Positions 1 to 64,000 of a stretch of 64,000 nt of DNA are shown here, one piece after another. The position numbers and the translations under genes are program-made. The notes under the pieces are model-generated. The model was not told where the DNA came from, searched no databases, and saw only the letters and a list, made by a program, of their open reading frames with translations. Origin of the DNA: an uncultured Gammaproteobacteria bacterium (GTDB lineage: Bacteria; Pseudomonadota; Gammaproteobacteria; Steroidobacterales; Rariloculaceae); the NCBI GenBank assembly GCA_963841645.1, contig CAWJDS010000017.1, forward strand, positions 215,609 through 279,608. Direction: 5' to 3'. Position 1 is the stretch's first letter; each line of letters opens with the position of its first letter.

Positions 1-223
1 CGTTCTTCGCGATGCGGCGCGAGCTGCCGACGCCGTTCGACCGCGCGCCGCAACTACCGCGTGACGGTCGGCGATCGAATCTGGACGCGCGCTGTATCTG
101 CCGCTCGCGGCGCTCGTGCAGCGCATGGCCGAGGCGGTCGCGTGGCTGCAGCAGGGACGGATCGCGACCTATCTGCTCTACAGCTTCGTCACGCTGCTCG
201 TGCTGCTGGCGCTGGTGCTATGA
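1..223 (+). pseudogene. NuoL/HyfB-like antiporter-type membrane subunit, C-terminal end only (runs off left edge; frame change near nt 60)
   Basis: Frame 2 nt 65-223 reads RALYLPLAALVQRMAEAVAWLQQGRIATYLLYSFVTLLVLLALVL-stop. The stop TGA 221-223 overlaps the next ATG (ATGA). It sits directly upstream of the NuoH-like gene, as in hyf/hyc operons. Assignment rests mostly on context. Confidence 0.4.
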
Positions 224-1183
224 GCGCGCTGTCACTGGCTCACGCAGATGCTCGAGGTGCTCGCCGCGATCGCGGCCGCGCCGCTGTTCGTCGGGCTGGG
301 TCGACTCAGTGCCGCGCGTGGCTGCAGAACAAGTCCGCGCCGAGCATCTGGCTGCCCTATCGCGGCATCCGCAAGCTGTTCCACAAGGACGCGGTGCTCG
401 CCGACGCAGCGCGTCGTCGCTGTTTCGCGTTCGCGCCGTACGTCGTGTTCGGCACCATGGTGTGCGCGGCGGCGATCATTCCGTCGATGGGCACGCGCCT
501 GCCGTTCTCGAGCGCGGCCGACGCGATCGCGCTCGTCGGCCTGTTCGCCACGGCGCGCGTGTTCGTGTCGCTCGCGGCGATGGACGTCGGCACGGCGTTC
601 GGAACGCTCGGCGCGCGCCGCGAAATGATGGTCGGCTTTCTCGCCGAGCCCGCGCTGCTGATGGTGATCTTCGTCGCCTCGCTGATCTGCCGCGAGCACC
701 GCGCTGCCGGCGATCTCCGAAGCGCTCGCGACGCAGCCGCTCGCGCTGTATCCGAGCCTCGCGTTCACCGCCGTCGCGTTCATGCTGGTGCTGCTGGCGG
801 AGAACGCGCGCATCCCGGTCGACAATCCGGCGACGCACCTCGAGCTCACGATGATCCACGAGGCCATGCTGCTCGAGTATTCGGCGCGGCATCTGGCGCT
901 GATGGAATGGGCCGCGGCGCTCAAGCTCTTCAACTACGCCTGCATCGGCTTCGCGCTGTTCGTCCCGTGGGGCGTTGCGACGGCGCGAGGCCAGACGCCG
1001 GCCGCGCTGCTCGCTGTCGTTGCCGATCCTGGCGGCTCAAGCTCGCGGCCGCCGGCGCCGGGCTCGCGCTGATCGAGACGGTGTCGGCCAAGCTGCGCGT
1101 GTTCCGCGCGCCGGAGTTCCTCGCGACCGCGTTCCTGTTCGCCGTGCTCGGCCTGCTCGTCCACCTGCTGCTGCGGAGCCTGA
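220..1183 (+). pseudogene. HyfC/HycD/NuoH-like membrane subunit (frameshifted as read)
   Basis: Family segments: WLQNKSAPSIWLPYRGIRKLFHKDAV and VGLFATARVFVSLAAMDVGTAFGTLGARREMMVGFLAEPALLMVIF (frame 1); AFMLVLLAENARIPVDNPATHLELTMIHEAMLLEYSARHLALMEW (frame 2); LIETVSAKLRVFRAPEFL (frame 1). Frames switch 1-2-1-2-1. The 3' end is approximate. Confidence 0.75.
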
Positions 1184-1185
1184 CC

Positions 1186-1859
1186 ATGAGCGAGCTGCCG
1201 TTCGACCTGCAGATCCTCAATACGCTCGCGGCGCTGCTGCTGCTGCTCGTCGTTCGCGATGCTGTCGCAGCGGCGCGTCGTCACGCTGGTGAATCTGCTC
1301 GCGTTCCAGGGCGCGCTGCTGTGCGTCGGCGACGCTGCTGCTCGCCTGGCGCACCGGGCAGACACCATCTGTATTTCTCGGCGGCGCTGACGCTCGCGCT
1401 GAAGGTCGATCTTCCTGCCCTGGCTGCTGCACCGGCTGATCCGGCGGCTCGGCGTCTACTGGGACAGCGAGCCGCTGATCAACATCGCCGGCACGATGCT
1501 GCTGGGGCTTGCTGATCGTGATCTTCGCGTTCGGCCTCGCGCAGCCGATCGCCGCGCTCGCGAGCACGGCGACGCGCAGCACGATCGGCATCGCGGTCGC
1601 CGTCGTCCTGCTCGCGTTCCTGACGATGATCACGCGCCGCAAGGCGATGTCGCAGGTGGTCGGCTTCCTGTCGATGGAGAACGGCCTGTTCTTCGGCGCG
1701 ATGAGCGCGACCTACGGCATGCCGATGATCGTCGAGCTCGGCGTCGCGCTCGACGTCCTGGTCGCGATGCTCGTGCTCGGCGTGTTCTTCTTCCAGATCC
1801 GCGAGCAGTTCGACAGCCTCGATCTGCATCACCTCGAGTCGCTGAAGGAGGAGCAGTAG
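1186..1859 (+). pseudogene. HyfE/NuoK-like membrane subunit (frameshifted as read)
   Basis: N-terminus MSELPFDLQILNTLAALLLLL. The middle reads FAMLSQRRVVTLVNLLAFQGALLCV and IFLPWLLHRLIRRLGVYWDSEPLINIAGTML in other frames. ORF 1509-1859 carries MSQVVGFLSMENGLFFGAMSATYGMPMIVELGVALDVL. About five frame changes. Confidence 0.7.
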
Positions 1860-1860
1860 C

Positions 1861-3327
1861 GTGGAGTTCCTGCGTGCTGCTCGGCGACTCCGCTCGTCGG
1901 CGCGCGTGTGCCTGGCGTTGTTCGGCGCGCGGCGCTGGGCGCCCGAGGCGAACGCGGCGTTCAGCCTCGCGACGTTGATCGCCGCGTGCGCGCTCACCGC
2001 GCGCGTCATCGGCGAGGGGAATCTGCAGCGCGGCGCACGAGCAGTTCTTCATCGATCCGTTCAACGTGTTCCTGGTCACGCTCACCGCGTTCGTCGGCTT
2101 CACCACCTCGCTGTTCTCGCGGCCCTACATGCGCATCGAGCTCGAGCACGGCCGCGTCAAGCCGCGCGCAGCTGCGCCTGTATCACAGCATGTACCAGCT
2201 GTTCATCGCCGCGATGCTGATCGCGCTCACGACCAACAACATGGGGCTTGCTGTGGGTCGCGATGGAGGCGGCGACGCTCTCGACCGTGCTGCTCGTGAC
2301 GCTCTATCGCACGCCCGCGAGCCTCGAGGCAGGCTGGAAGTACTTCATCCTCTGCGGCGTCGGCATCGCGCAGGCGCTGTTCGGCACGATCCTGCTGTAC
2401 TTCGCGGCCGAGAAGGTGCTCGGCGGCGAGGGCATGACCGCGCTGCTGTGGACGCACCTCAACGCCGTGAAGGGCAGCTCGAGCCCGCCGTGCTCGAGCC
2501 TCGCGTTCGTGTTCCTGCTGGTCGGCTACGGCACCAAGGTCGGCTTGGCGCCGCTGCACAACTGGCTGCCCGACGCGCACGCCGAGGGCCCGACGCCGAT
2601 CTCGGCGGTGCTCTCGGGGCTGCTGCTGAACGTCGCGATTTACGCGGTCGTGCGCTGCAAGGTGCTCGTCGAAGGCTCGCTGCACTCGCCGCTGCCGTCG
2701 ACGCATGCTGATGGGCTTCGGACTCGTGTCGGTGGTGCTGGCGGCGTTCTTCCTCTGGCGACAGCGCGACATCAAGCGCCTGTTCGCGTACTCGTCGATC
2801 GAGCACATGGGCATCATCACGTTCGCGTTCGGCATGGGCGGCCCGGTGGCGAACTTCGCCGCGCTGCTGCACATGACGGTGCACTCGCTGACGAAGTCGG
2901 CGATCTTCTTCGCGGTCGGCCACGCCGCGCAGAAGGCGGGCACGCAGGTCATGGACGACATCCGCGGGCTCATCACGCTGAGCCCCGACCGTCGGCTGGG
3001 GCCTGATGCTCGGCGCGCTCGCGATCCTCGGCCTGCCGCCGTTCGGCGTGTTCGCGAGCGAGTTCCTGATCCTCACCACGGCGATGCGCGAGCAGCCGTG
3101 GGCGACGCCGATCCTGCTGCTGGCGCTCGGCGTCGCGTTCGCCGCGATCTTCGGCCGCGTGCAGCCGATGGTGTTCGGCGAGACCACGCGCGAAGCGCCT
3201 GCCGCATCCGCCGGCGCTGCTGCCGGTGTTCGCGCACCTCGGGCTCGTGCTGATGCTCGGCTTGTTCATCCCGCCGTACCTCGCCGACTGGTTCCGGCTG
3301 GCGGCGCAACTGATCGCGGGGTCCTGA
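1861..3327 (+). pseudogene. HyfF/NuoN-NuoM-like proton-translocating membrane subunit (frameshifted as read)
   Basis: GTG at 1861 follows the previous stop by one nt. Motifs: FNVFLVTLTAFVGFTTSLFSRPYM, LRLYHSMYQLFIAAMLIALTTNNMGL, LWVAMEAATLSTVLLV, GYGTKVGLAPLHNWLPDAHAEGPTPISAVLSGLLLN, FAYSSIEHMGIITFAFG, HSLTKSAIFF, LGLPPFGVFASEF. These are spread over three frames with at least six changes. Stop TGA 3325-3327. Confidence 0.8.
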
Positions 3328-3331
3328 GGGA

Positions 3332-4891
3332 ATGCTGCGCGCATGGCTCGAGCAGATCCACCGACGCTGCCCGGCGCGCCGGGCGTGCGGCGCCTCGCGG
3401 CGACGCTCGGAGACTTGGCAGCCGATGCGCGCGCGACGTCGCGGCGACCGGCGGCCGGCTGCTGGCGCTGTGGGCCGATCGCGCGGCGAACGCCGCCGTG
3501 CATCGCCGCGTTCCTCTGCCGACGGCGCAGCGCTGCTGGTCGATCTCGCGCTGGAGCTGCCGGCGACGATGGCGTACCTATCCGGCCTCGCGGACATCTT
3601 TCCCGCGCGGCGCGCATGCAGCGCGCGGCCGCGGATCTCACGCGGCGTGCGCGCGCGCGATGCGGACCAGCGCCCGTGGCTGCGCCACGCGGCGTGGCCG
3701 CGCGACTACTACCGCTCGCGCCGCGCTCGCCGGCTACGCGGGTCGACGGCACGCCGCCGCCCGACGACTATCCGTTCGTGCGCGTCGCCGGCGACGGCGT
3801 GCACGAGATTCCGGTCGGGCCCGGTGCACGCCGGCATCATCGAGCCCGGGCATTTCCGCTTCTCGATCGTCGGCGAAAAGGTGCTCAAGCTCGAGGAGCG
3901 TCTCGGCTACGTGCACAAGGGCATCGAGCGGCGTTCTCCGAGCACGAAGCTCGCTCGAAGGGCCACCGGCTCGCGGCGCGCGTGTCGGGCGATTCGGCCG
4001 TCGCGTATCTCTTGGGCGTACTGCCAGGCGCTCGAGGGCATCGCGCGCTGCGACGGTGCCCGACGCGCGCGGCTCTGGCTGCGCGCGCTTGCGCTCGAGT
4101 GCGAGCGCATCGCGAACCATCTCGGCGATCTCGGCGCGCTCGGCAACGACGCGGGATTCGCCTTCGGCCTCGCGCAGTTCTCCCGATTCAAGGAGCATCT
4201 GGCTGCGCGCGCTCGACGTCGGCGCTCGGCCAGCGCTATCTCATCGATTTCGTCGTGCCGGGCGGCGTCGCGCGCGACGCGCGCGACGACCAGCTCGCGC
4301 GACTCGCTGACTGCGCGCGCGATGCTCGGCGCCGAGGCCGCGACGCTGCGCACGATCTACGACGAGCACGCCGGCGTGCGCGATCGATTCGCCGGCGCCG
4401 GCACCGTGACGCCGGACCTCGCCGCGCGGCTCGGACTCATCGGGCTCGCGGGCCGCGCGAGCGGGCAGGCTCTCGACCTGCGCGTCGATCTGCCGTGCGC
4501 GTCCGTACGCGGAGCTCGATCCGTGCGAAGAGCGGCGCGCGACGATGGCGACGTGGCCGCGCGCGTCGCGGTGCGCTTCGACGAGCTGACCGAGTCGCTG
4601 CGCCTCGTGCGCGAGATCGTCGAGCAATTGCCGCCCGGCGAGCTGTGGCGCCGACGTTGCCGCCGGCCGACGGAGGGCGCGCGCGGCATCGGCCTCATCG
4701 AAGGCTGGCGCGGACCAGTGCTCGTCGCGCTCGACCGCGGGCCCGGACGGCTACATCGGCGCTGCCATCCGCACGACCCTTCGTGGCAGAACTGGCCGGT
4801 GCTCGAGCACGCGATCATCGGCAACATCGTGCCGGATTTCCCGCTGATCAATAAGTCTTTCAACCTCTCCTACAGCGGGCACGATCTCTAG
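3332..4891 (+). pseudogene. NuoCD/HycE-like large subunit of a group-4-hydrogenase-related complex, NiFe cysteine ligands absent (frameshifted as read)
   Basis: ORF 3332-4891 stays open, but the homology alternates between frames 2 and 1. Motifs: GPVHAGIIEPGHFRFSIVGEKVLKLEERLGYVHKGIE, LAARVSGDSAVAY, ALECERIANHLGDLGALGNDAGFAFG, GIGLIEGWRGPV, DPSWQNWPVLEHAIIGNIVPDFPLINKSFNLSYSGHDL-stop. Confidence 0.8.
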
Positions 4892-4893
4892 CC

Positions 4894-5414
4894 ATGTGGA
4901 AGACGCTCCGCAAGATCTGCTCGCATCGGCATCGTCACCGAACCCCCGCCCGCGACCGACGAGGCGCTGCGTGTCGGCGAGCATCTGCAGGCCGAGATTC
5001 GCGCGCATGCTGGGTCGCGCGCTGTGCATTCGCCACGTCGATGCGGGTTCGTGCAACGGCTGCGAGCTCGAGATCCACGCGCTCGGCAATCCGTTCTACA
5101 ACATCGAAGGGTACTAGGCATCAGATTCGTCGCCAGCCCGCGGCACGCGGACTTGCTGCTCGTGACGGGGCCCGTCTCGCGCAACATGGAGCTCGCGCTC
5201 CGCCGCACGTACGACGCGACGCCGGATCCGAAGCTCGTCGTCGCGATCGGCGATTGCGGCTGCACCGGCGGGATATTCGGCGAGAGCTACGCGACCGCCG
5301 GTCGCGTCGCGAACGTGATTCCGGTGGACGTCGCCGTGCCAGGCTGCCCTCCGCATCCGAGACAGGATTCTCGCCGGTATTCTGACCGCGATCCGCGCGA
5401 CAAGCAGCGGTTAG
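4894..5414 (+). pseudogene. HycG/NuoB-like [4Fe-4S] small subunit (frameshifted as read)
   Basis: ATG 4894 lies 3 nt after the previous stop. LCIRHVDAGSCNGCELEIHALGNPFYNIEGY is in frame 3, followed by an in-frame TAG at 5115-5117. Then GIRFVASPRHADLLLVTGPVSRNMELALRRTYDATPDPKLVVAIGDCGCTGGIFGESY...VAVPGCPPHP is in frame 2. The tail ILAGILTAIRATSSG-stop (5412-5414) is in a third frame. Confidence 0.8.
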
Positions 5415-12090: not shown

Positions 12091-13359
12091 CGCTTCGCCT
12101 CGAACACGACCTCGCCGCCCTTGATCGTCGTCACGACGTGCTGCAGCGCGCTGCTGTCGTGCAGCGGGTCGCCGTCGACGATCACGATGTCGGCGAGCTT
12201 GCCGGGCTCGAGCGTGCCGATCTCGGCGCCGTGCATCGTCGCGGTCGCGGCGTTCTTCGTGATGATCTTGCACGACCTCTTGGGGCGAGAACACGAGCCG
12301 CAGCGCGCGGAGCTCGTCGCCGAGCGTCTCCTTCGGCGGCCATTGCGTGTCGGTGCCGTAGCCGTAGCTCACGAGCCCGGCGTCCCAGAGCAGCCGTGCG
12401 TTGACCGGACCCTGGCCCGCGCTCGACAGCGTGTTCCACGGGAACGGCTTCGCGATCGCGGAAGAGCGGCGGTGCCCTTCTCGTCGAAGTGCGGCACGAA
12501 CACGGACAGCGTCGACGTCATCGGAATCTTCGCGTCGACGATCTTCTTCACCGCGTCCGGATCGTCGCTCAAGATTGCCGATGTGCGGCGTGTGCACGAG
12601 CAGATCGGGCTTCGCTTCGATCGCGACGAGCGTGTCGCGCACGCTGACGGCGTGCACGATCGTCGGCTTGTTGTGCTTCTTGCCCTCGGAGACGATGAGC
12701 TTCAGCGTCTCGAGTTCGGGGCCGTTCTTCGTCGTGTTGAGCACGACCTTCAGATAGTCGTAGCCCGCCTTCGCGGCGTCCTCGACAGCCTTGATCGTGA
12801 CCTCGCGCGGCATCGCCGGCTGCGGGCTGGTCGGGCAATGGCCCGCGCGCGGGATCGGTGCGCGCCGGATCGCCGGTGGGCGGCGGGCCCGGCGGGCCGC
12901 CCTGCGACCGGTATGGAACGCGCCGACGTAGAGCCGCGGTCCCTTCAGCTGACCGGCTTCGATCCGGTTGCGCGCCTCGATCGCCGGCGGCGGATCGATC
13001 GCGCAGAGCACGCGTCGTGAAGCCCGCGTCGAGGAACTCCTGCATCTGCTTCGGCGCGGTCTTGTCGAGCCAGTCGGCGCGTCGCCCGTCACGATGTGGC
13101 GATGCGCGTCGATCAGGCCCGGCATCACGGTCTTGCCGCCCGCGTCGATCGTGCGGCCGCCTGCCGCGGCCGCCGGCGCAGTGGCGGACACCGATGCGAT
13201 CTTGCCGTCCGTGACGACGACCGCGCCGCGCTCGATCACGCGGCCGGTGCCGTCGATGATCCGCGCGTTCGTGATCGTGAGGTTCTGGGCGCTGGCGCCG
13301 GTTGCGATCAGCCACGCAACAGCCGCCGCGACGCCGTGAAGGCGTAGGGTCTTGTTCAT
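12087..13359 (-). pseudogene. secreted amidohydrolase family protein (multiply frameshifted as read)
   Basis: Signal peptide MNKTLRLHGVAAAVAWLIATGASA. NLTITNARIIDGTGRVIERGAVVVTDGKIASV, GKTVMPGLIDAHRHI, KAGYDYLKVVLNTT...PTIVHAVS, LVSYGYGTDT, and C-terminus GKLADIVIVDGDPL...TIKGGEVVFEAKR. These pieces lie in all three frames (about 5-6 changes). Confidence 0.75.
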
Positions 13360-38076: not shown

Positions 38077-38078
38077 CG

Positions 38079-44147: not shown

Positions 44148-44163
44148 CGCGGACCGGTGCACT

Positions 44164-47201: not shown

Positions 47202-47210
47202 AGTTCAGGG

Positions 47211-48179: not shown

Positions 48180-48180
48180 T

Positions 48181-49002: not shown

Positions 49003-49065
49003 CGCGGAATATCCAACGCGAGAAATGAGAGGCGCGCGCTGACTGCGCGCGCTACGATAACGCGC

Positions 49066-50502: not shown

Positions 50503-51029
50503 GCTACACGACGAACCATGAGCCGCACCGCTGGGGCACGATCGAAACGGATTTCGCGACGTTCGCCGCGTGGGTCGACGAGCGCGGCCGTCTCGTGCGC
50601 TTCAATCTGAGCGCGAAGGGCGCCGCGAAAGTGGACGCTACCGCGGTGCACGACGAGCGCGCGATCGCGCACGTGCGCAAGCAGGTCGAGGAATACTGCG
50701 CGGGCAAGCGTACGGAGTTCGACCTCGAGCTCGCGCCGACGGGCACGGAGTTCCAACGCGCTGTCTGGAACGCGCTACTCGAGATCCCGTACGGCGAGAC
50801 CCGCAGCTATGGCGAGGTCGCGCGAGCGATCGGTCAGCCGAAGGCTGCGCGCGGCGTCGGCTCCGCGAACCACGCGAATCCGATCGGGCTCATCGTGCCG
50901 TGCCACCGCGTGATCGGTGCGGACGGCAGCCTCACGGGCTACGGCGGCGGGTTGCCGCTCAAGCAGGCGCTGCTCGCGCACGAGGCCGCGCACCGGCCCG
51001 ACACTCAGCGGAGCGGGGCGCTGTTCTGA
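50499..51029 (+). CDS. ogt: methylated-DNA--protein-cysteine methyltransferase
   Basis: TEFQRAVWNALLEIPYGETRSYGEVARAIGQPKAARGVGSANHANPIGLIVPCHRVIGADGSLTGYGGG with the PCHRV active site. The ATG overlaps the Ada/AlkA stop. Confidence 0.9.
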   Translation: MSYTTNHEPHRWGTIETDFATFAAWVDERGRLVRFNLSAKGAAKVDATAVHDERAIAHVRKQVEEYCAGKRTEFDLELAPTGTEFQRAVWNALLEIPYGETRSYGEVARAIGQPKAARGVGSANHANPIGLIVPCHRVIGADGSLTGYGGGLPLKQALLAHEAAHRPDTQRSGALF

Positions 51030-52041: not shown

Positions 52042-52764
52042 TCAGAGCAGCGAGTGGAAGACGTTCTGCACGTCGTCGTCCTGCTCGAGCTTGTCGACCA
52101 GCTTGAGCACCTCGGTCGCCTGCGCCTCCGGCAGCTCGACCGGCGTCGTGCGACGTACTCGGACTCGGCCGAGATCGGCGTGATGCCGCGCTCCTCGAGC
52201 GCCTTCTGCAGCTGGCCGAAGTCGGCGAACGCGCAGCGCACGACGAGCTGCGGCTCGCCCTTCTCGCCGGTGCTCTCGCCCATCTCCTCGAGGCCGTGGT
52301 CGATCAGGTCGAGCTCGAGCTCGTCCGACGTCGATGCCGTCGGGATTCAGGCGGAACACGCCCATCTTGCGTGAACAGGAACGCGACGCTGCCGGTCGCG
52401 CCCAGGTTGCCGCCGCCCTTGTTGAAGATCGCGCGCACGTTCGCGACCGTGCGCGTCGGGTTGTCGGTCGCGCTCTCGACGATCACCGCGACGCCGTGCG
52501 GCGCGTAGCCTTCGTAGAGGATCTGCTCGTAGTTCGTCGCGTCCTTGCCGGACGCGCGCTTGATCGCCGCCTCGACCTTGTCCTTCGGCATGTTGACCGC
52601 GCGCGCGTTCTGGATGACGCGGCGCAGCGCGGGATTGGAGTCGGGATCGGGCCGCCGGCCTTGACCGCGATCGTGATCTCCTTGCCGATGCGCGCGAACG
52701 CCTTGGACATCCGGTCCCAGCGCGCGAACATCGTGTGCTTGCGGACTTCGAAGATGCGTCCCAT
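52042..52764 (-). pseudogene. yebC: YebC/PmpR-family transcriptional regulator (about four frameshifts as read)
   Basis: [147 protein letters not shown]-stop. These are spread over all three frames. Confidence 0.8.
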
Positions 52765-52830
52765 AAGGCGCGAATTCTCGCACGCCGCGGGCGGCCGCGT
52801 CCCACCTCGCAAACCGTTTCGCGTGGCTCG

Positions 52831-55205
52831 CTAGAAAAGGTCGGCCTGGCGGCGTCGCCGATCACCTGCTCGAAGTCGAGGCCGAGCGCGTCGAGCACCG
52901 GCTCCGCGACCGGCCGCACCTGCTTGTCGACGTAGTGCTCGCGGTCGAGCGGGTGCTGCAGGTTGTCGAGCGGCTCCGGCCCCGCCGTGGTCATCACGTA
53001 GCTGATCGAGGCGGCCCGGCGGCTGCGTCGACTTGCGCGCCGCGGCAACGTGCGGCGGCGTGCGTCGCGGTGTAGTCCTCGGCCGCCTTGCGCAGGTTCT
53101 TGCGATAGACGAGCGCGTCGTCGAGCTCGCCGCGCGCGCACGCGCCGCACGACGTCCGCGAGGTACGCGTCGACGGGCTGATCGGTGAACAGCCGCCGAT
53201 AGAGCTCGCGCTGCACCTGCTTCGCGAGCGCCGTCCAGTCGCGGCGCACGACTTCCATGCCGACGAATTCGACGTCGTGCTCGGCCGTCGCGCGCCGTGA
53301 ACGAGGCCGGCGTAGCGCTTGCTCGCGCCGCGCGTGCTGTGCCGCGCGCTGCGGCAGGAAGAGCTTGCAGGTACAGCTTCTCGAACTCGAGCTCGAGCCG
53401 GCTCTCGCACGCGCCAGCGCTCCGCGATGTACGTCGCGAGCTCGGCGTTCAGCTGCGACGCGGCCAGCGCTGCCTCTGCCCGTGCGGCGCGTCCGCGATC
53501 GTCGTGCCGGAGCGCACGAACAGGCTGTCGGTGTCGCCGTAGAGCACGTCGTAAGCCCGCGCTCTCGAACCAGCCTTCGACCACAGCAGCATCTCGCGGC
53601 CGATGCCCGGTGATCGCGTTCGCGAGCGCCGGGTTGTAGAAGCGGCAGGCCGGCGTGCCGAGCACGCCGTAGAACGAGTTCATCAGGATCTTGATGGCGT
53701 GCGACGCCACGTCGTCGCCGCGCTTGCTTCGCCGCCTCGCGCCGCGGGAACAGCTCGTCGAGCATGCGCGGCAGGATCGCCGGCTCGCGCCGGAACGCGC
53801 CGCCCGGCGTCTCGATCAGATCGTCGTCCGGGCGCCGGGCTCGGCGACGTAGCGCGAGCGGATCGATGTTGAACGTGCGGATGAGGCTCGGATACAGGCT
53901 CTTGAAGTCGAACACCCACACGTTCGCGTGCAGCCCGGTGATCGGCTCGAGCACGTGACCGCCCTGCTGCGCCGCGTACACGCGCGAGTCGTCGCAGCGC
54001 ACGGTCGGCGCGACGATGCGGCGCTGCTCGAGCTCGCGCGAGATACAGGAAGTCGAACGACGCGATGCTCGCCGCGACGCGATCGGGCGTCATGCCGGTC
54101 AAGCTGGCTGCGCGCGAACGCGAGCGCGCACGAGATTGAGCTTCTCGACGATCTGATACGCGAGCCGCGCGTCGGTGCGCGCGTAGAGCGCGAACGCCGG
54201 CAGGTCGTGCTCGATAGTTGTGCAGGATCTCGCCGATGCGATCGCGCACGTCGCCGTCGAGCGCCTTGCCTTCGCCCAGCACTTCGCGCGCGACCGCGTC
54301 GAGCGAGTAGTCGTCCATGCGCACGAAGGCGCCGCGCAGCAGGTCGATGCCGTCGAGCACGACGCGGCCCGGGATCGCTGGCCTGGCCGCTGCCGAAGTA
54401 GCCTTCGGCCTTGCGCAGCCGCATGCGCGCCGCGTCGCGGCCGAGCTCGAACGGATGCCGCAGCGCGCGCCGCGATCCGCTGCAGCACCGTGAGATCGAA
54501 GTCGATCGTGTTCCAGCCGGTGAGCACGTCGGGATCGAGCGTCGCGCACGCGCTCGCAGAACGCGTCGAGCGCTGCGCGCTCGTCGGCGCAGCGCATCGG
54601 CCTTCTCCGGCATCGCGCGCGCGCCGCCGTCGACGATGAGCACCTCGTCGACGCCCGGCGCGTACAGCGAGATCGCGAGCAGCCGCTCGCCTTCGGGATC
54701 GGTCTCGATGTCGAACGACAGCACGCGCGGCTCGACCTCGACCTGCGCCGGCCGCAGCATCGGGATTGTCGAAGATCGAGCGAGACGCGCTCGGCGCTCG
54801 TGCGCGGCTCGCCTTCGATCTCGCAGCCGCCCTTGATGCCGCGCTCGATGAGGTAGCGCGATCGCGAAGCGCACGTCGGCCTCGAACGTGTCGATGCCGT
54901 GCGGCGTGCAGCCGATCGCGCAGCGCCGGCACGTCGGCCGGCACCTCGACCTCGATGCGCACGACGGGCGCGCCGTCGAACGTGCGCTCGTCCGATGGGC
55001 TGCGAGCCGGCGGCGCCGAGCGCGCGCGCGCGTTGCGCATCGGCTGCGCGGATGTAGAAGTGCGGACGCTGCCGATCGTCGCGCACGAGGAACGTGCCGC
55101 CGTCCTCGAGCCGACCGTAGAGGTGCACGACGGGACGCGCTCGCCACTCTCGCCGGTCTCGACGCGGTAGCTCGCCTGCAGAATGAAGCCGCGGTGCGCG
55201 TTCAC
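52831..55205 (-). pseudogene. polB: family B DNA polymerase (Pol II type), at least ten frameshifts as read
   Basis: N-terminus (GTG 55205) NAHRGFILQASYRVETG...VHLYGRLEDGGTFLV. ExoI SFDIETDP (~54698-54720). TGWNTIDFDLTVL. Motif A VFDFKSLYPS (~53889-53915). Motif B KILMNSFYG (~53666-53695). Motif C LYGDTDS (~53524-53544). C-terminus RQADLF-stop (52831-52833). Confidence 0.85.
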
Positions 55206-55371
55206 GACGCTAGTTTGCACCAGCTCGTTGGCCGCGCGCCGTCGTTCGAACCGAGTTCGTTCTGGTATGCGTCGCCGGTGAGCAACATCGGCAGCGCAAG
55301 CCCGACCGAACGAGACTTCGGTCCTGGCCGCGCGGGTCGGGCTGCAATATCGTGTGGCGGCCGGGAGAACG

Positions 55372-56838
55372 ATGAAGCCCAAGGTTTCCAGACGATTGGC
55401 ACTTCGAGGTGCCGTCGGCGCTGCGCTCGTCGCGGCGCTGCCGCGCGCGGCGCGTTCGCAGAGCGACACGAAGGCGTCGCCGACCACAGCCGATCTCACC
55501 GGCCGTCTCGCGCGCTACATGGCCGACGCGCGCACGCGCGCGTTGCCGGAGCGCGTCGTCGTCGCGGCGAAGCAGAGGATCCTCGACACGCTCGCGGCGA
55601 TCGTCTCGGGCGCGCGCCTCGCGCCCGGCAAGCTCGCGATCGACTACGTGCGTACGCTCGGCGGCACGGCCGAGGCGTGCGTCGCGACGACGAGCATCGT
55701 GACGACCGCCGTCGAAGCCGCGTTCGCGAACGCAATGTGCGCGCATGCGGACGAGACGGATGACTTCCACCCGCTCACGAAAGCGCATCCCGGCTGCGCC
55801 GTCGTGCCGGCCGCGCTCGCGATGGCCGAGCGGGAGCATGCATCCGGCGCCGCGCTGATCGCGGCGGTCGTGCTCGGCTACGACGTCTGCTGTCGGTTTC
55901 TGATGGCGCTCGGGCCCGACGCGGTGCGCGCGAGCGAGCAGAGCGCCGAGGGCGTGAGCTCGACGTTCGGTGCAGCGGCGGCCGCCGCGTCGCTCGCGGG
56001 CTTCGACGAACGCCGGATGCGCTACGCGATCTCGTACGCCGCGCAGCAGGCGTCGGGCGTCTGGAGGTGGGAGCGCGACGAGGAGCACGTCGAGAAGGCA
56101 TTCGATTTCGCGGGCATGGGTGCTCGCAACGGCGTGATGGGCGCGACGCTGATCGCCGCGGGCTTCACGGGCGTCGCGGACGCGCTCGACGCCGCGCCGA
56201 ACGTGTTTCACGCGCATTCGCCGCTACCGTCGCCCGACGAGATTGTCGCGGAGCTCGGCGCGCGGTTCTACGTCGCGGAGACTGCGATCAAGACGTTTCC
56301 GGTCGGCTATCCGATTCAAGCGCCGCTGACCGCGTTCCTGCGTCTGCGCGAGCGGCACGGATTCGACCCGGACGAGGTGCGTCACATCACTCTGCGGCTG
56401 CCACCCGACGGCGCGAAGATCGTCGACAACAGCGCGATGCCTGACGTCAACGTGCAGCACATCATCGCGATCGCGCTGCTCGACCGGCGCATCACATTCG
56501 AGAACAGCCACGCACGCGAGCGGCTCACGGATCCGCGCGTGCTCGCGGTGCGCGAGCGCATCGAGCTCGTCGCCGATCCCGCGCTCGTCGACGCGGCCGC
56601 GCCGCGTAGCGGACTCGTCGAAGTGACGTTGACCGACGGCCAGAGGCTTCGCGAGCTCGTGAAGCACGCGCCCGGGACGCCGGAGAACCCACTCGACACT
56701 GCGGGCGTGAACGCGAAAGCGCGCGAGCTCATCGCGCCGGTGCTCGGCAGCGAGCGTGCCGAAACGCTGATTGCGCGCGTCGGCGCGCTCGAGCGAATTC
56801 CCGACCTGCGCGAGCTCCGACCGGCGCTCATGAGCTGA
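55372..56838 (+). CDS. MmgE/PrpD-family protein with a Tat-type signal peptide
   Basis: gggaga lies upstream of ATG 55372. MKPKVSRRLALRGAVGAALVAALPRAARS. PrpD-like body (AKQRILDTLAAIVSG, HADETDDFH, HPGCAVVPAALA, TFPVGYPIQAP). Intact. Confidence 0.85.
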   Translation: MKPKVSRRLALRGAVGAALVAALPRAARSQSDTKASPTTADLTGRLARYMADARTRALPERVVVAAKQRILDTLAAIVSGARLAPGKLAIDYVRTLGGTAEACVATTSIVTTAVEAAFANAMCAHADETDDFHPLTKAHPGCAVVPAALAMAEREHASGAALIAAVVLGYDVCCRFLMALGPDAVRASEQSAEGVSSTFGAAAAAASLAGFDERRMRYAISYAAQQASGVWRWERDEEHVEKAFDFAGMGARNGVMGATLIAAGFTGVADALDAAPNVFHAHSPLPSPDEIVAELGARFYVAETAIKTFPVGYPIQAPLTAFLRLRERHGFDPDEVRHITLRLPPDGAKIVDNSAMPDVNVQHIIAIALLDRRITFENSHARERLTDPRVLAVRERIELVADPALVDAAAPRSGLVEVTLTDGQRLRELVKHAPGTPENPLDTAGVNAKARELIAPVLGSERAETLIARVGALERIPDLRELRPALMS

Positions 56839-57125
56839 CCGGCCGCGATCGGCGGTCGGTCTGGATCAGGCGTTGCAAAATCGGTGTGATCGGCACGCGC
56901 CAGCGTGCCGCCCCGTCCGCTTGTCGAGCGCCGCCGCCTGCATTGCTGTACACTGCACGGAGTCGGATTCGCCGGCGTCCTCCCCACCAAAGGAACGCAC
57001 GTGAGCACATCGCTTTACGTGAGCCGTTTCCCATTGTCGACCGCGGCAGATAGGGCTCACACCGCCAACCAACCGAACGCGGAGCGGCTCGCGCTCCTGC
57101 TGCCGGCCGGTCGAGCGGCTAGCCG

Positions 57126-57443
57126 TTGATCGGCATGCGCCCCGGAAACACCACCGGAGACGGATCGGTCGCAGTGGTGCTCGACGCCTATCGACTCGTG
57201 TCGATCGAGAGCACGATCGCTCCCGCGCCCGCCGACGGAGACGATTGGCTCGTGTACACGATCTCGCAAGGCACGAACGTCGTCACGGGCTATCGGCGCG
57301 GCACTCGCGCGAGCGTCACTTACGAGGTCGAGCGGATCGTAGAGGCGTTCAACGATCGCCTGATGGTGCGGCCTCGAGTCAACCGCTGGACCGGCAAGCC
57401 GGTCGCGCCCAACCCGCGGGGGTTGCTGCCGAACGCGCGCTAA
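57126..57443 (+). CDS. small hypothetical protein (~102-105 aa)
   Basis: Balanced composition (VAVVLDAYRLVSIESTIAPAPADGDDWLVYTISQGTNVVTGYRRGTRASVTYEVERIVEAFNDRL). TTG 57126 or ATG 57135. No family recognised. Confidence 0.45.
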   Translation: MIGMRPGNTTGDGSVAVVLDAYRLVSIESTIAPAPADGDDWLVYTISQGTNVVTGYRRGTRASVTYEVERIVEAFNDRLMVRPRVNRWTGKPVAPNPRGLLPNAR

Positions 57444-57925
57444 ACCCAGCGTCGAACCCGGTTCTTGTACGCGCCGAACGCCGCGCCGAACGTGCGTTCC
57501 ATGCTCCGCTCTTCGAACGGAATGATCACGAAGTGGTCGAGCACGAACAGCACCACGGGAACGGCCCACATGAGCCACGTGCCCGCGACGAGCGCCGCGC
57601 CGATCCCAGTCACGAGATTCCCGAGATACATCGGGTTGCGCGAAACCAGAAACGGACCGCTCGCGACAACCGTGGTGTGGGCGTCCGATGACGGTTTGAG
57701 CTGCGCCCGGTGCATCCTGAACGTCACAGCCGCCCAGACGCTGAACGCGAAGCCGGCGAGAATCAGGATTTCCCCCGTCAGTCGATGCTGAACGACGGCC
57801 GACGTCTGGAGCAGCACGTTGACGCCGAGCGCGAGGATGACCAGCCCGATCAGCCACAGCGGCGTCGGGATCTGGACGATCCAGGACGGCTTGCTCGTAG
57901 CGGCGACCGTTTCGATCTTTGCCAT
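57440..57925 (-). CDS. isoprenylcysteine carboxyl methyltransferase (ICMT/PEMT-like) family membrane protein
   Basis: SGPFLVSRNPMYLGNLVTGIG...IIPFEERSMERTFGAAFGAYKNRVRRWV. Four or five TM segments. Confidence 0.8.
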   Translation of the reverse strand: MAKIETVAATSKPSWIVQIPTPLWLIGLVILALGVNVLLQTSAVVQHRLTGEILILAGFAFSVWAAVTFRMHRAQLKPSSDAHTTVVASGPFLVSRNPMYLGNLVTGIGAALVAGTWLMWAVPVVLFVLDHFVIIPFEERSMERTFGAAFGAYKNRVRRWV

Positions 57926-57995
57926 GTCCGGAGTATAGGCGGACTACTTCGATGGCGGGCAATCGCGCGACCGCGGCGGCGCGAGCGCGGAGCGG

Positions 57996-58802
57996 TTAGG
58001 CAACCCCGAGCATCGCGCGGACCGCCGGCCACGAGCGCTGGCCGTTCGCGCGCATCTCTTCCGCGAGCTCTATCGGCAGCCAGTCGACGAACGCCGCGCG
58101 AAACGTCGATCGCGCGCGGACGCGCGCGAACCACTGCTCGACCCGCGGCAAGCGGCCGCGCTCCCACAGCCCCTCCATCGCGAGCGCCGCGAGCCGGTTG
58201 ACGTACGGTGCCATCGCGATGTCGGCCATCGTGAACCGGTCGCCGACGAGCCAGTCGGAGCTTGTCAGCGCCTGCTGCATCTTGTGTAGATACGCGTCGT
58301 AGAGGCGGATCTTGTCGGCCGCCCCGGGGGCGTCGAGGCCTTGCTGGATCCACTGCCACTTGAGCGTGCGGGCCGCAGCCCCTTCGTGCGCGCCGAGCGC
58401 GAGAAAATCCTCGAAGCTGCCGGCGCCGTTGCGCAGGATCGTGTGCCGGTGCGAAACGATGTAGGTGAGCGCGGAGCACGCGGGATGCAGCTCCTCGTCC
58501 ACGGCTTTGGTCCAGATACGCACGCGCGCGCGTTCCAGAGGCGGCGACGGATAGAGCGGGTTCTCGGGAAACGTTTCCTCTGCGTACTCACAGATCACGG
58601 TGGATTCGACGATCACCGCACCGTCGTGCACGAGCACGGGCACGACGGCCTTCGGGTTCAACGCGAGGAACTCCGGCGCGAATTGCTCGCCCTTCAAGAT
58701 GTCGACGTAGCGGCTCACCCACGTGAGCCGCTTCTCCGCGAGCGCGAAGCGCACCTTCGCGGCGCATGCGGACGAACCGTGGTGATAGAGCTCGAGGGCC
58801 AT
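57996..58802 (-). CDS. glutathione S-transferase family protein
   Basis: LELYHHGSSACAAKVRFALAEKRL, LNPKAVVPVLVHDGAVIVESTVICEYAEETFP, and a C-terminal helical domain (FTMADIAMAPYVNRL). Confidence 0.85.
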   Translation of the reverse strand: MALELYHHGSSACAAKVRFALAEKRLTWVSRYVDILKGEQFAPEFLALNPKAVVPVLVHDGAVIVESTVICEYAEETFPENPLYPSPPLERARVRIWTKAVDEELHPACSALTYIVSHRHTILRNGAGSFEDFLALGAHEGAAARTLKWQWIQQGLDAPGAADKIRLYDAYLHKMQQALTSSDWLVGDRFTMADIAMAPYVNRLAALAMEGLWERGRLPRVEQWFARVRARSTFRAAFVDWLPIELAEEMRANGQRSWPAVRAMLGVA

Positions 58803-58826
58803 CGGCGAACGAGACGAGGCGTGCCG

Positions 58827-60164
58827 CTACGGCTTCTTCGTGAACGTGTCCCAGGTGCGCAGCAGCTGTCCCGCGAGCTTGTTCGGGTCCGCGCCCTCGA
58901 TCGGCTCGAACTTCTGTATACGGCCCGCGAAGCAATCGGCGACGTACAGATTACCGAGCTGATCGGTCGTTAGGCCGTGCAGGCAGCTGAAGCGGCCCGG
59001 CTGCGGGCCCGGCGCGCCCCAGCCATAGAGGAAGTTGCCGTCGAGATCGAACTTGAGGATTCGATTCGTGCGGCCGTCGCCGGCCCAGATGAAGCCTTTG
59101 TCGTCGATGAAGTGATTCGTCACGAGCGTCGCTTGGCTCGCGGGCCAATGCGGCGACCGCAGCGACCACATCGTGATGAACTTGCCGTCGGTGTCGAACA
59201 CTTGCATCCGCTCGTGGCCGCGATCGACGACGAACAGACGGCCGTCCTTGCTGATCGCGATGCTGTGGACCGTGTTGAACTCGTTCGGTCCGGGATGCTG
59301 CGGGTCCTTCGGCGCTTGGCCCCAGTCCTTCACGAAGTTGTCGTTCTTGTCGTACTTCGCCACGCGGGTGCCACCGTAGCCGTCGGTGATGAAGTAAGTG
59401 CCGTCGGGCAGCCACGCGATGTCGGTTGGACGGTTGAAGTTGTTCGGCCCGCGTCCCGCGACGCCGAGCTCGCCCTTCTTCATGTCGAGCTTACCGTCGT
59501 GCGTGAAGCGGTAGATCATGTGCTGCTGGTCGTCGATGATCCAAACGTGCTTCTCGGGATCGTATGGGCTGATCTTGATTTGATGCGGCCCGCGGCCGCA
59601 CGGCGTCGCGCTGAACAGCTTGTCGAGCTCCGGCCACTCGTCGACGAGCTCGCCGGCGCGATTCACCACGAAGATCGAATGCTCGAACCGCCGCTCCCAA
59701 CCGCGCTTCGGCTCCTCGCCGCAGGTAGCGGTCATCCCGTCGCCGTTGCCTGTCGCCGTGCGCGCCGGATTCAGCGCGACATAGGGAGTCCACGGCGCAG
59801 CCCCTGCGGGCAGCGGCAGCTCGCCGCGCATCGCAATCCAAATCCGGTCCGGCGACTCGGCGTACACGCTGCCGAACGAGCCCCAGGTCCAGCCGTCGTG
59901 CGAGTGGCGCGTGTCGGGCAACGGCTTCGGCCAGTTCTCGACGACTTTGTAAGGGCCGGTCGGCCAGTCTTGATAGCTCCACGGCTCGCGCCCGCCGCTG
60001 CTGCCGTGCGAGCTCGCGTCGGGCGTGCCGTAACGCGCTGTGCCTTGCGCGGCTGTAGACGACTGCGCTCCCTGCGATTGGGACTGCTCGCAACCTGCGA
60101 GTTGAAGGGCGAGCAGCAATGACAGCGTCGCAGTCAGCGACGTGAGTGAAGTGGCGCCGCGCAT
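58827..60164 (-). CDS. exported NHL-repeat six-bladed beta-propeller protein
   Basis: Lipoprotein-like signal LLLALQLAGC. Repeats such as GRLFVVDRGHERMQVFDTDGKFI, KGFIWAGDGRTNRILKFDLDGNFL, GNLYVADCFAGRIQKFEP. Confidence 0.75.
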   Translation of the reverse strand: MRGATSLTSLTATLSLLLALQLAGCEQSQSQGAQSSTAAQGTARYGTPDASSHGSSGGREPWSYQDWPTGPYKVVENWPKPLPDTRHSHDGWTWGSFGSVYAESPDRIWIAMRGELPLPAGAAPWTPYVALNPARTATGNGDGMTATCGEEPKRGWERRFEHSIFVVNRAGELVDEWPELDKLFSATPCGRGPHQIKISPYDPEKHVWIIDDQQHMIYRFTHDGKLDMKKGELGVAGRGPNNFNRPTDIAWLPDGTYFITDGYGGTRVAKYDKNDNFVKDWGQAPKDPQHPGPNEFNTVHSIAISKDGRLFVVDRGHERMQVFDTDGKFITMWSLRSPHWPASQATLVTNHFIDDKGFIWAGDGRTNRILKFDLDGNFLYGWGAPGPQPGRFSCLHGLTTDQLGNLYVADCFAGRIQKFEPIEGADPNKLAGQLLRTWDTFTKKP

Positions 60165-62718: not shown

Positions 62719-63096
62719 CTATAGCCGATCCGGATAGACGTCGTAGTTCTTGCCGTTCCAGGTCACGCGCTCGGTCTTAACCTCGAGCTTCTTCGGGTCG
62801 AGGTTGCGCTTGCCGGAAATCGTGACCTCGGCTCCAACCGGAATCACACCTTCCTCGAGCCCCGCGGCCTTCGTGCGCGGCGGTGGCGCGAGCGTGAGGT
62901 CCCAAACCTGACCCTTCTCGTCCTTGATCTGCATCGTCGCGTGCGGGCCCGAGAGGCTCACGCCCTTCGCGACTGTGCCCTTGAGCGTGAAATTCTCCGT
63001 GCCTTGTCCGGACCAACCGTGGTGGGCGAGCGCGCTCGCAGATATCGTGAGGCCGACGACTGCAGCGCAGAAACCGTTGACGATCTTGCTTTGCAT
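62719..63096 (-). CDS. DUF6152-like small periplasmic protein
   Basis: aaggagg lies upstream of ATG 63096. Signal MQSKIVNGFCAAVVGLTISASALA, then HHGWSGQGTENFTLKGTV...PVGAEVTISG. Confidence 0.6.
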   Translation of the reverse strand: MQSKIVNGFCAAVVGLTISASALAHHGWSGQGTENFTLKGTVAKGVSLSGPHATMQIKDEKGQVWDLTLAPPPRTKAAGLEEGVIPVGAEVTISGKRNLDPKKLEVKTERVTWNGKNYDVYPDRL

Positions 63097-63186
63097 GGGA
63101 GCCTCCTTGGACTGCAACCTGTTCTGTGGACCGTGTTCGGACGATACCACACGGCGGCGCGGGCGGCGTGCCGCGCTGCTAGCCGC

Positions 63187-63765
63187 TCAGATGCCTAGCA
63201 GCTCACGGCCGTAATTCCAGAGCCCACGGCCCGCGAAGATGTAGAGCGCGCAGATCGCGCCTTCGCCGACGAGCACGCCGAGCATGAAGCGGCGAAACGA
63301 GATCTGCATCGCGCCGCAGACGTAGCAGATGAGGTCCGTCGGCGCGAGCGGGAAGAAGCTCCAGACCATCACGATCGTCGTCGGGTTGCGTGCGAGCGCC
63401 GCGCGGACGCGGGCGACCGCGGCGGCGTGCTTCGTCTCGAAATACTCGGCGAGATGCAGCGAGCCCGCAAACGCGTAGATGCTCGCGGAGGAGACGAGGA
63501 TTCCGACCAGCGTGAGCACGAGCAGCGGCAGCGGCGGGAAGATCGGAATCGCGAGCAGCACGAGGTTCGCGGCCGGAATCAGCGTGAAGCCGCGCACGCA
63601 GCCGAGCGCGAGATAGAGCGCGTAGCCGAGCAGCAGCGACGATGCCGCGACGTCGCGAAACTCTGAGCCCCACGTGCCCGAGCGGGACCAGTAGAGCAGC
63701 ACGAACGCCGCGACGAAGAGCAACCACAGAACGAGGCGAACGCGCGTGGCGGTCGGGGGCATCAC
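63187..63765 (-). CDS. TVP38/TMEM64 (DedA/VTT-domain-like) membrane protein
   Basis: GFTLIPAANLVLLAIPIFPP...FFPLAPTDLICYVCGAMQISFRRFMLGVLVGEGAICALY fits the VTT-domain pattern as I remember it. Confidence 0.55.
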   Translation of the reverse strand: MMPPTATRVRLVLWLLFVAAFVLLYWSRSGTWGSEFRDVAASSLLLGYALYLALGCVRGFTLIPAANLVLLAIPIFPPLPLLVLTLVGILVSSASIYAFAGSLHLAEYFETKHAAAVARVRAALARNPTTIVMVWSFFPLAPTDLICYVCGAMQISFRRFMLGVLVGEGAICALYIFAGRGLWNYGRELLGI

Positions 63766-63785
63766 GGCGCGGATTCTACGCGTGA

Positions 63786-64000
63786 TCAGACGAAGCCACG
63801 GAGCTCGACTCTGAGCAGCATCGCCGGCACGCGAGGGTCGTCGGAGTCCGTCAGCAACCAGCCGCCGCGGGCGTCGCGATCGATCGCGACGCCCTCGACT
63901 TTGTACGGGCTCGGCCGCCCGTCGCTACCGAGGAGTCGAGTCCAGCGTGCGCCGCCGCCATTCGCGCTCGGCTCGAGCAAGCCGACGACGGAGCCCAATA
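63786..64000 (-). CDS. C-terminal end of a hypothetical protein (gene continues beyond the right edge)
   Basis: ...SPYKVEGVAIDRDARGGWLLTDSDDPRVPAMLLRVELRGFV-stop. The ORF is open to the window end. Confidence 0.4.
   Translation of the reverse strand, partial: LGSVVGLLEPSANGGGARWTRLLGSDGRPSPYKVEGVAIDRDARGGWLLTDSDDPRVPAMLLRVELRGFV

Follow-up and report, generated by a model that had tools for sequence, protein, structure and literature searches.

Background

Assemblies of Nanopore reads reportedly carry frameshift artefacts that surface as truncated gene calls of the IDEEL type, as Watson & Warr are said to have pointed out in 2019. Such artefacts (see also PMC9262707) depend on coverage and are gone after polishing. 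The MFD-LR catalogue of soil MAGs was generated from Nanopore reads only with mmlong2, in which Flye 2.9.2 (--meta --nano-hq) is followed by a single round of Medaka 1.8.0 (PMC12313526). Its authors observed that coding density is reduced in lower-coverage MAGs, linked low coding density to archaeal MAGs of low GC that are rich in homopolymers, and stressed micro-diversity as a problem of soil (PMC12313526). An earlier benchmark by the same authors found that about 40x is needed for near-finished R10.4 consensus.

The window analysed here is a stretch of 64,000 nucleotides from a gammaproteobacterial, Steroidobacteraceae-like contig with 68% GC. Its closest relative, L001, is the MAG MFD00031.bin.2.166 of that catalogue. 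A sequence-only reading of the window had described many genes broken by frameshifts in a patchy, block-wise manner and had favoured consensus or polishing error over old pseudogenes.

Results

We aligned the window at the nucleotide level (blastn) to intact short-read relatives with 85-93% nucleotide identity to it, and counted as events the indels inside reference coding sequence whose length is not a multiple of 3. In 41.6 kb of reference-covered coding sequence we found 148 frameshifting indels, consisting of 117 insertions and 31 deletions. The events are clustered far above chance (index of dispersion of 8.9 per 1-kb bin) and their density is graded, with stretches of 10-25, 1-3 and 0 events per kb. 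Six references (L012, L013, L015, L016, L029 and L042) are intact at the indel sites of the window. We also ran a codon-usage Viterbi path over six frames and counted same-strand frame switches, obtaining 40 switches per 10 kb in both 1-5500 and 11.9-13.4 kb, 16 in 40.9-43.45 kb and 73 in 52.0-55.3 kb. The baseline is 3-9 per 10 kb in the stretches previously called clean and 4-6 per 10 kb in intact related contigs. The deposited sequence does contain these frameshifts, and their clustering in blocks is genuine.

The switch rates, the reference alignments and the dispersion all bear out the patchiness proposed by the sequence-only reading, and its estimate of 22 disrupted genes out of 66 is about right. 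Its by-eye counts put the numbers 3-fold too low, with about 20 frame changes in 1-5414 and about 15 in 51045-55205; we found about 60 in 1-5408 and about 50 in 52.1-55.2 kb.

Noisy block 1 (positions 1..5408, forward strand) is a six-gene Hyf/Hyc-like (Ehr-type) operon with about 60 frameshifting indels, or about 11 per kb, and 22 Viterbi frame switches. The genes are, in order, the 3' end of a hyfB-like gene, a hyfC/NuoH-like, a hyfE-like and a hyfF-like gene, the large subunit and a NuoB-like small subunit. All are intact in both short-read contigs, L012 and L013, against which blastn yields 52-53 insertions and 7-9 deletions of non-multiple-of-3 length in reference coding sequence. In a 4-way MAFFT alignment of the window, L012, L013 and L001, the insertions unique to the window are 44 of 1 nt, 5 of 2 nt and 3 of 3 nt, and the unique deletions are 5 of 1 nt. 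An in-frame TAG at 5115..5117 (forward strand) in the NuoB-like gene had been attributed to a 2-nt insertion, and the alignment agrees: the window reads TAC-TA-GGC where 3/3 relatives read TAC-GGC. The public gene call for the large subunit, P0001 (440 aa; NCBI and ENA record), is encoded exactly at 3569..4891 on the forward strand and belongs to a contig of 372,020 nt; the indels are therefore present in the deposited record. P0001 is a single-frame ORF that crosses out-of-frame stretches.

Noisy block 2 lies in an amidohydrolase gene (about 11.97-13.37 kb, reverse strand), where 8-10 single-base indels, nearly all insertions, span 12268..13075 (12268, 12451, 12467, 12568/74, 12811/18, 12905, 12913, 13009 and 13075). 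They are mostly backed by both L012, which has an intact 420-aa gene, and L001; over 11968-13507 the reference alignment gives 7-8 insertions and 0-1 deletions of non-multiple-of-3 length. Noisy block 3 (41992..43201, reverse strand) is of low density, with about 5-6 events and 4 Viterbi frame switches in a DUF1592-type gene (40920-43423) upstream of a DUF1552 gene. Compared with L029 (92.5% nucleotide identity) and L022, it has insertions at about 42057, 42157-66, 42466 and 43201 and a messy stretch at 41992-42077; the insertion at 42466 is backed by every covering reference, and the segment 40908-41839 is gap-free against L035. Noisy block 4 comprises two genes on the reverse strand. A YebC/PmpR-family gene (52044..52803) has 1 insertion and 4 deletions relative to L015 (intact, 241 aa). 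The DNA polymerase II (PolB) gene at 52830..55222 is the densest part, with about 45 frameshifting indels (about 19 per kb): 33-35 insertions and 11-12 deletions relative to intact L015 (792 aa) and L016 (786 aa), 26 of the 1-nt insertions being backed by both.

Isolated events are found outside the blocks in genes for a carboxylesterase, esterases, a metallo-beta-lactamase-fold protein, an MFS permease, an ECF sigma factor and similar proteins. A 1-nt insertion at 21601-4 (forward strand) in the carboxylesterase gene is backed by all covering references (L001, L017, L019), as are two 1-nt insertions at 22336 and 23187 in the reverse-strand gene 21998-23456 (L001, L017). In the sparsely hit stretch 35605..38802 a single base is missing at 35605-11 and a single extra base is present at each of 36745, 38213 and 38799-802. 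Every one of these events is backed by 2-7 independent short-read contigs (L017, L018, L019, L022, L023, L042, L096), and the three insertions are backed by all references that cover them. The 1-nt insertions at 45251, 45269 and 46543 (forward strand, inside reference coding sequence) are backed by one reference each (L029 or L015), and the events at 25154 and 43201 likewise have single-reference support only. The site near 20265 corresponds to a gene boundary and a synteny break.

Two clean stretches serve as controls. The ABC transporter, Ada-AlkA and Ogt genes at 46600..51029 (forward strand, GC 0.69) have no coding indels of non-multiple-of-3 length relative to L015, which is 90-92% identical at the nucleotide level, and their dN/dS is 0.085-0.165. 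Directly adjoining block 4, 55416..59426 has 0 such events in reference coding sequence, again compared with L015. The blocks 47.2-51.0 kb and 55.3-64 kb had been described as clean, and the absence of coding events from 47-51 kb and 55416-59426 agrees with this. Within 13.6-19.7 kb, also described as clean, the reference alignment shows 0 frameshifting coding events in 18006-19529.

Once the frame is corrected, the disrupted genes are under purifying selection. Their dN/dS is 0.13-0.26 in block 1, 0.20 for the amidohydrolase, 0.23 for PolB and 0.32 for YebC; the same genes give 0.06-0.17 between intact references. About 2,900 frame-corrected codons contain no in-frame stop. The previous remark that premature stops are almost absent carries little information, since a GC content of 68% makes for long off-frame ORFs (the 64 kb contain 265 ORFs of at least 100 aa). 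A search for essential genes among those disrupted yielded none, so that an argument from lethality is unusable.

The errors have a distinct signature. Insertions outnumber deletions 117:31 overall (about 4:1), 52:7 in block 1 (about 7:1) and 33:11 in PolB. The inserted bases differ from their neighbours: only 13 of the 82 well-supported insertions extend a run, compared with 43.4 +/- 4.4 expected under a random-insertion null (minimum of 29 in 2000 simulations). Homopolymers, previously noted at some sites, are not the context of the insertions. By codon phase the insertion slots are uniform when combined (21/26/21), the individual counts being 10/21/13 for block 1 and 11/5/8 for PolB. We considered whether the insertions might each represent the other allele of a synonymous SNP beside them, a sign of strain merging, and rejected this, as the hint given by block 1 is reversed in PolB and the combined phase is uniform. 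Methylation at Dam/GATC or CpG sites was also rejected as a source: CG adjacency is not enriched (33/82 versus a background of 0.33, p = 0.20), and a motif effect would not be patchy.

Contrary to what had been supposed, the damage is not restricted to indels. Inside the blocks we observed about 2-5% extra lineage-specific substitutions, in about equal excess at all three codon positions. Substitutions unique to the window reach 3.2/2.5/8.1% at the first, second and third positions in block 1 and 6.9/6.7/14.2% in PolB; for comparison, the clean DUF1552 gene has counts of 3/1/27. In the block spectrum, transitions make up 40-43% and GC>AT changes are about as frequent as AT>GC changes, unlike the reference lineages, in which GC>AT dominates. 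GC-rich stretches had also been proposed as the cause. The blocks have a GC content of 0.69-0.71 versus 0.64-0.69 in clean sequence, but we found no correlation between events per kb and GC (Spearman rho of 0.17, p = 0.31). The stretches at 24-28 kb and 49-51 kb, with GC of 0.70-0.72, are nearly clean, as is the GC-rich sequence of 47-51 kb as a whole.

The same operon is noisy in the closest relative. L001 has 12 insertions outside runs versus 2 deletions there, at sites that differ from those of the window; in the 4-way alignment 52 insertions are found in the window only, 12 in L001 only and 2 in both. The L001 contig ends inside this noisy operon, its errors lie within 5.7 kb of that end, and one gene that they reach into is undamaged in the window.

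Discussion

Taken together, these sequence comparisons suggest that the frameshifts are very probably consensus errors of a long-read metagenome assembly and not mutations of the organism, in which the 'broken' genes are almost certainly intact. The earlier preference for consensus or polishing error over old pseudogenes is strongly supported by the indels being private to the assembly, by low dN/dS and by the lack of in-frame stops. We infer that the window most probably comes from a Nanopore-only assembly of the Flye/Medaka type. The noisy blocks would be patches of about 1-5 kb in which the consensus has raw-read quality, with about 1-1.4% single-base insertions, 0.15-0.4% deletions and about 2-5% substitutions. 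Such patches most probably arise where local read support is very low (about 1-3 reads) through fluctuation of depth in a low-coverage MAG. The polisher would tend to keep a base present in one read and absent in another, a property that we assume of it rather than a documented one; because it keeps the disputed base, read insertions would survive and read deletions would be repaired. A graded error density is what local variation in depth is expected to produce. Within the class of artefacts we lean, with a little more than even confidence, towards locally low read depth as the specific cause, the depth itself being deduced.

Two observations fit less comfortably with this explanation. Insertion excess and homopolymer avoidance differ from the homopolymer deletions of the Nanopore textbook case. 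Moreover, two independent MAGs are noisy in one operon. Instead of chance dips in depth, something particular to this locus might be responsible, for example a tangle in the assembly graph or reads cross-mapped from related populations.

Two other routes to an artefact can be weighed against low depth. Reads of at least two co-occurring related strains or species may have been piled up, either because the region acts as a repeat in the assembly graph or because it draws in cross-mapped reads, with the polisher emitting a garbled consensus that contains extra bases. Collapsed micro-diversity of this kind is stressed as a soil problem (PMC12313526), and it would account for the same operon being noisy in two independent MAGs, one of whose contigs ends there. 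It would also account for inserted bases unlike their neighbours, as though both alleles had been written out next to each other, and at 1407, 3414, 3503 and 428, for example, the relatives do carry both bases. We nevertheless regard it as unlikely: the insertion slots are not gathered beside third positions, where natural polymorphism lies, many insertions occur in contexts invariant across all relatives, and the excess substitutions fall equally on positions 1, 2 and 3 without the natural GC>AT bias. Nor are the blocks more conserved, at 85-87% identity compared with 90-92% in clean stretches. A hybrid assembly in which short-read polishing failed in the most GC-rich stretches, as the sequence-only reading had proposed, would produce the sharp alternation of noisy and clean sequence that is seen, and the blocks are indeed slightly richer in GC. 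We judge it improbable, since error density does not track GC and since L001 has the same signature and comes from a Nanopore-only pipeline without short-read polishing (PMC12313526). Modern long reads at good depth would, besides, not yield a consensus with 2-5% substitutions, even unpolished.

It is conceivable that the indels are real. They are present in the deposited sequence and DNA polymerase II is among the most damaged genes, which makes a broken PolB a tempting culprit for a very recent burst caused, for instance, by a mismatch-repair or polymerase defect. In bacteria, deletions prevail among spontaneous indels and in pseudogene decay, and Streisinger slippage would favour run-extending insertions, the opposite of the pattern observed here. 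Indels of the mismatch-repair type sit in mononucleotide runs, which the insertions of the window avoid, and insertions lead by about 4-7:1. A genome-wide mutator is incompatible with the dispersion observed, where 4-5 kb of clean sequence lie beside 19 events per kb, and the GC>AT bias and surplus of transitions seen in related lineages are missing from the substitutions. An independent MAG also has the same signature at other sites, beside a contig end. Such a burst, previously thought impossible to dismiss from sequence, can be largely excluded from run avoidance, insertion excess and the missing GC>AT bias, and we hold it to be highly improbable. We give still less credence to patches whose recent re-synthesis was error-prone, with single bases added outside runs and about 3% of the bases miscopied; if true, this patch-wise hypermutation would be a mechanism not described in bacteria and the sibling MAG would show it independently. 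Least credible, to the point of being negligible, is that the operon, PolB, YebC and the amidohydrolase are old pseudogenes in reductive decay. About 1/3 of the genes are interrupted and those affected are individually dispensable, but after frame correction they have dN/dS of 0.13-0.32 and no in-frame stops, every fragment keeps GC3-rich codon usage, and neither truncations nor deletions of several nucleotides occur. Of about 66 operon events, only 2 are common to the closest relative, and neutral decay would not leave sixty indels beside a mere 2% or so of additional substitutions. Programmed ribosomal frameshifting or recoding was rejected, with up to 45 shifts per gene, 0 of them conserved, and orthologues that are single ORFs.

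The biological significance of the preferred reading, consensus error, is small and its significance for annotation is larger. The 'disrupted' genes, namely those of the Ehr-type operon, those for DNA polymerase II, YebC and the amidohydrolase, and about 15 more, are to be treated as intact. Calls such as P0001, which are partly out-of-frame translation, pollute protein databases, lower the identity to true orthologues (67% at the amino acid level where the DNA is 87% identical) and are open to misreading as pseudogenisation or novel protein variants. The combination of patchy single-base insertions outside runs, substitutions blind to codon phase and a corrected dN/dS well below 1 offers a read-free fingerprint for such patches in long-read MAGs.

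Among known systems, pseudogene decay and mutator lineages share with the window the many genes interrupted by small indels. The window differs from them in its excess of insertions, its avoidance of runs, a dN/dS far below 1, the lack of nonsense codons, its patchy distribution and a substitution spectrum that is not natural. As in the MFD-LR catalogue, of which L001 is a member carrying the same error signature, the contig of the window is large and of soil type; the authors of the catalogue, however, link its low coding density to archaeal MAGs of low GC, and the window is gammaproteobacterial with high GC. With the frameshift artefacts of Nanopore assemblies the window has in common consensus indels that split genes without disturbing codon usage or family motifs. 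The classic artefact consists of genome-wide homopolymer deletions, whereas the window has single-base insertions outside runs, confined to patches of 1-5 kb and accompanied by substitution noise. The artefact of the window is not of the homopolymer type.

Frameshift density along the window

Across the window, GC content ranges from 62 to 72%, and the names of homologues suggest the gene content of a Steroidobacteraceae-type gammaproteobacterium from soil. We counted indels with lengths not divisible by 3 wherever the coding frame of a reference runs uninterrupted. The references were short-read metagenome contigs: L012 (ENA, 'k141' contig) and L013/L014 (JGI), all with intact orthologues, for the operon; L012 for the amidohydrolase; L015 and L016 for DNA polymerase II (PolB), L015 being syntenic with 46.5-59.4 kb; and L017-L096 (JGI) for the DUF1552 neighbourhood, including L042 (93% identical to 35.5-40.1 kb) and L029 (92% identical to 40.9-43.4 kb). 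DNA identity to these references is 85-93%, while the broken proteins reach merely about 67-73%.

We found 52-53 insertions and 7-9 deletions in 1-5408, 7-8 and 0-1 in 11968-13507, 33-35 and 11-12 in PolB, 1 and 4 in YebC, and 9 and 1 in 40917-45634. A single event, at 46543, was found in 46480-51029 and none in 55416-59426 or 18006-19529. The total of 148 events (117 insertions and 31 deletions in 41.6 kb of reference-covered sequence) has an index of dispersion of 8.9 per 1-kb bin. The block-wise patchiness noticed in the sequence-only reading is therefore real, with by-eye counts about threefold too low; the TAG at 5115-5117, ascribed there to a 2-nt insertion, is borne out in a four-way operon alignment. 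Some isolated single-base insertions are also backed by all references covering them. For 7.4-10.5, 15.4-18.0, 29.8-35.3 and 59.4-64 kb, which lack a close reference, "clean" means single-frame ORFs and Viterbi decoding alone.

This reference-free decoding used a codon-usage model trained on ten long clean ORFs and a six-frame Viterbi path across the window. Same-strand frame switches number 40 per 10 kb in both 1-5500 and 11.9-13.4 kb, 16 in 40.9-43.45 kb and 73 in 52.0-55.3 kb, compared to 3-9 outside these stretches. Gene boundaries ordinarily give 4-6, the rate that we obtained for intact related contigs and for a 2.2-Mb contig that comes from L001's MAG project. Fragments of all four blocks still translate into recognisable proteins, namely a six-gene Hyf/Hyc-like operon (block 1, 1-5408), an amidohydrolase (block 2, 12268-13075), the DUF1592-type partner of the DUF1552 gene (block 3, 41992-43201) and YebC plus DNA polymerase II (block 4, 52044-55222).

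Two local irregularities were also observed. An otherwise intact 525-aa amidohydrolase ORF carries two close insertion-plus-deletion pairs (29209-29213 and 29376-29385) relative to L042, the sole reference there; these may reflect an ambiguous alignment or brief, compensated departures from the frame. Downstream of a CsbD-like gene, the codon-usage signal of a Fe/Mn superoxide dismutase-like gene (9955-10556, + strand) ends at 10374 though the ORF (9861-10556) runs on.

The events are private to each assembly

The public 440-aa gene call P0001 (NCBI and ENA, on a contig of 372,020 nt) is encoded exactly by 3569-4891, including visibly out-of-frame translation, so the indels belong to the deposited record. 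The top genomic match to the window is L001 (CAVOVT010000007.1, 'MAG: uncultured Gammaproteobacteria bacterium isolate MFD00031.bin.2.166'), collinear with 1051-23823 at 84-90% nucleotide identity. In the four-way operon alignment 52 insertions are found in the window only, 12 in L001 only and just 2 in both, with none in the two short-read contigs; the events are thus private to each long-contig assembly and not inherited. Those of L001 look the same as the window's (12 insertions outside runs, 2 deletions). Its noisy stretch is the final ~5.7 kb of the contig and continues into the orthologue of 5568-6734, which in the window is an intact 388-aa ORF. The two noisy stretches overlap in the operon and differ in their edges, and noise is therefore not intrinsic to the genes.

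The L001 contig ends (position 774331 of 774331; L001 17875-18925) inside a hyfC-like region, and the window starts in the same operon, about 1 kb away. Should the window's first base likewise lie at the end of a contig, a break at one locus in two independently made assemblies would hint at an assembly-graph tangle, for which paralogous antiporter-like subunits or sequence common to several populations would be candidate sources.

Error signature and selection

The insertion-to-deletion ratio is about 4:1 for all events together and 7:1 in block 1. Among well-supported 1-nt insertions only 13 of 82 extend a run, compared to 43.4 +/- 4.4 (minimum 29) in 2000 trials of random bases placed at random slots. 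They are spread uniformly over the three slots of the reference codon (21/26/21 in total; 10/21/13 in block 1, 11/5/8 in PolB), and they show no enrichment next to CG (p = 0.20).

The damage had been described as indels only. This does not hold, since the blocks also contain window-unique substitutions above the rates of the reference lineages. Once alignment columns 3 nt or less from a gap are set aside, these amount to 3.2/2.5/8.1% at codon positions 1/2/3 in block 1 and 6.9/6.7/14.2% in PolB, compared to about 1-3/1-2/2.5-8.7% in reference lineages; the clean DUF1552 gene has counts of 3/1/27. The excess is about equal at the three positions. At positions 1 and 2 it consists of 40-43% transitions with GC>AT similar to AT>GC, while GC>AT dominates among relatives (24:3, 19:4, 24:13, 19:10).

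After restoring the frame by alignment to an intact orthologue, dN/dS (Nei-Gojobori) is 0.13-0.26 for the operon genes, 0.20 for the amidohydrolase, 0.23 for PolB and 0.32 for YebC. The same genes give 0.06-0.17 between intact references, and clean window genes 0.085-0.165. No in-frame stop is left in ~2,900 corrected codons. The roughly twofold rise in dN is what 2-5% of phase-blind noise would add, and we therefore conclude that purifying selection acted over essentially the entire divergence.

Origin of the frameshifts

We consider it very probable that the frameshifts are a patch-wise long-read consensus artefact, real in the sequence and not real biology. The sequence-only reading had likewise favoured consensus error over old pseudogenes, which are excluded by dN/dS far below 1, the absence of stops and events not common to relatives. 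It had left room for a very recent burst of indels, for example from a mismatch-repair or polymerase defect. Spontaneous bacterial frameshifts arise mostly in mononucleotide runs, and deletions prevail in bacterial indel spectra; a mismatch-repair or slippage burst is contradicted by run avoidance, insertion excess, extreme patchiness and a non-natural substitution spectrum. The idea that hybrid polishing failed in GC-rich stretches is not supported, as events do not track GC (Spearman rho 0.17, p = 0.31) and clean bins include those with a GC of 0.70-0.72. A variant of the artefact in which strains were mixed is possible, given that noise hits the same operon in two MAGs and that the L001 contig terminates there; it is disfavoured because insertions and excess substitutions ignore codon phase, unlike natural alleles.

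For the L001 catalogue, Nanopore reads alone were assembled in Flye 2.9.2 (--meta, --nano-hq) and polished once with Medaka 1.8.0, without short-read polishing; the catalogue's authors noted that coding density was reduced in MAGs of lower coverage (PMC12313526). According to the same group, near-finished R10.4 consensus needs about 40x (PMC9262707). We infer that the window's contig is also long-read. As a consensus artefact, the noise patches would stem from local swings in depth across a low-coverage MAG, which fits a total noise of ~3-7% inside blocks, a graded event density (10-25, 1-3 and 0 per kb) and block lengths in the kb range. A polisher that takes the loss of a base from a read to be more probable than the gain of one, and that at 2-3 reads would thus keep any base seen once, could account for the insertion bias.

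Consequences and gene content

The window is a cautionary case and offers a read-free fingerprint for long-read noise patches. Database proteins from such contigs can look like divergent new variants: 3569-4891 shows an apparent protein identity of 67-68% to its true orthologues P0002/P0003 because of consensus noise, the DNA still being ~87% identical.

Two further features concern gene content. PolB adjoins YebC at 52803-52830, without the 2.7-kb Ser/Thr kinase-PD40/Tricorn-like gene that separates them in L015 (6798-9479). A 586-aa protein (18007-19767, - strand) consists nearly throughout of ankyrin repeats, an unusual composition for a free-living bacterium from soil; the gene is kept in L001 and L019 at 86-88% nucleotide identity with 3-nt indels only.

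The large subunit of the operon (3429-4891) carries the annotation 'Ni,Fe-hydrogenase III large subunit', but all four NiFe-ligating cysteines are missing. In an alignment of P0002 to E. coli HycE (7Z0S chain E), 'RVCGICGFAHS' of HycE aligns with 'RVSGDSAVAFS' and its C-terminal 'DPCYSC' with 'NLSYSG'; the window has 'RVSGDSAVAY' at the former site. Because these cysteines are missing, the operon resembles an energy-converting hydrogenase-related (Ehr-type) complex more than it does a genuine hydrogenase.
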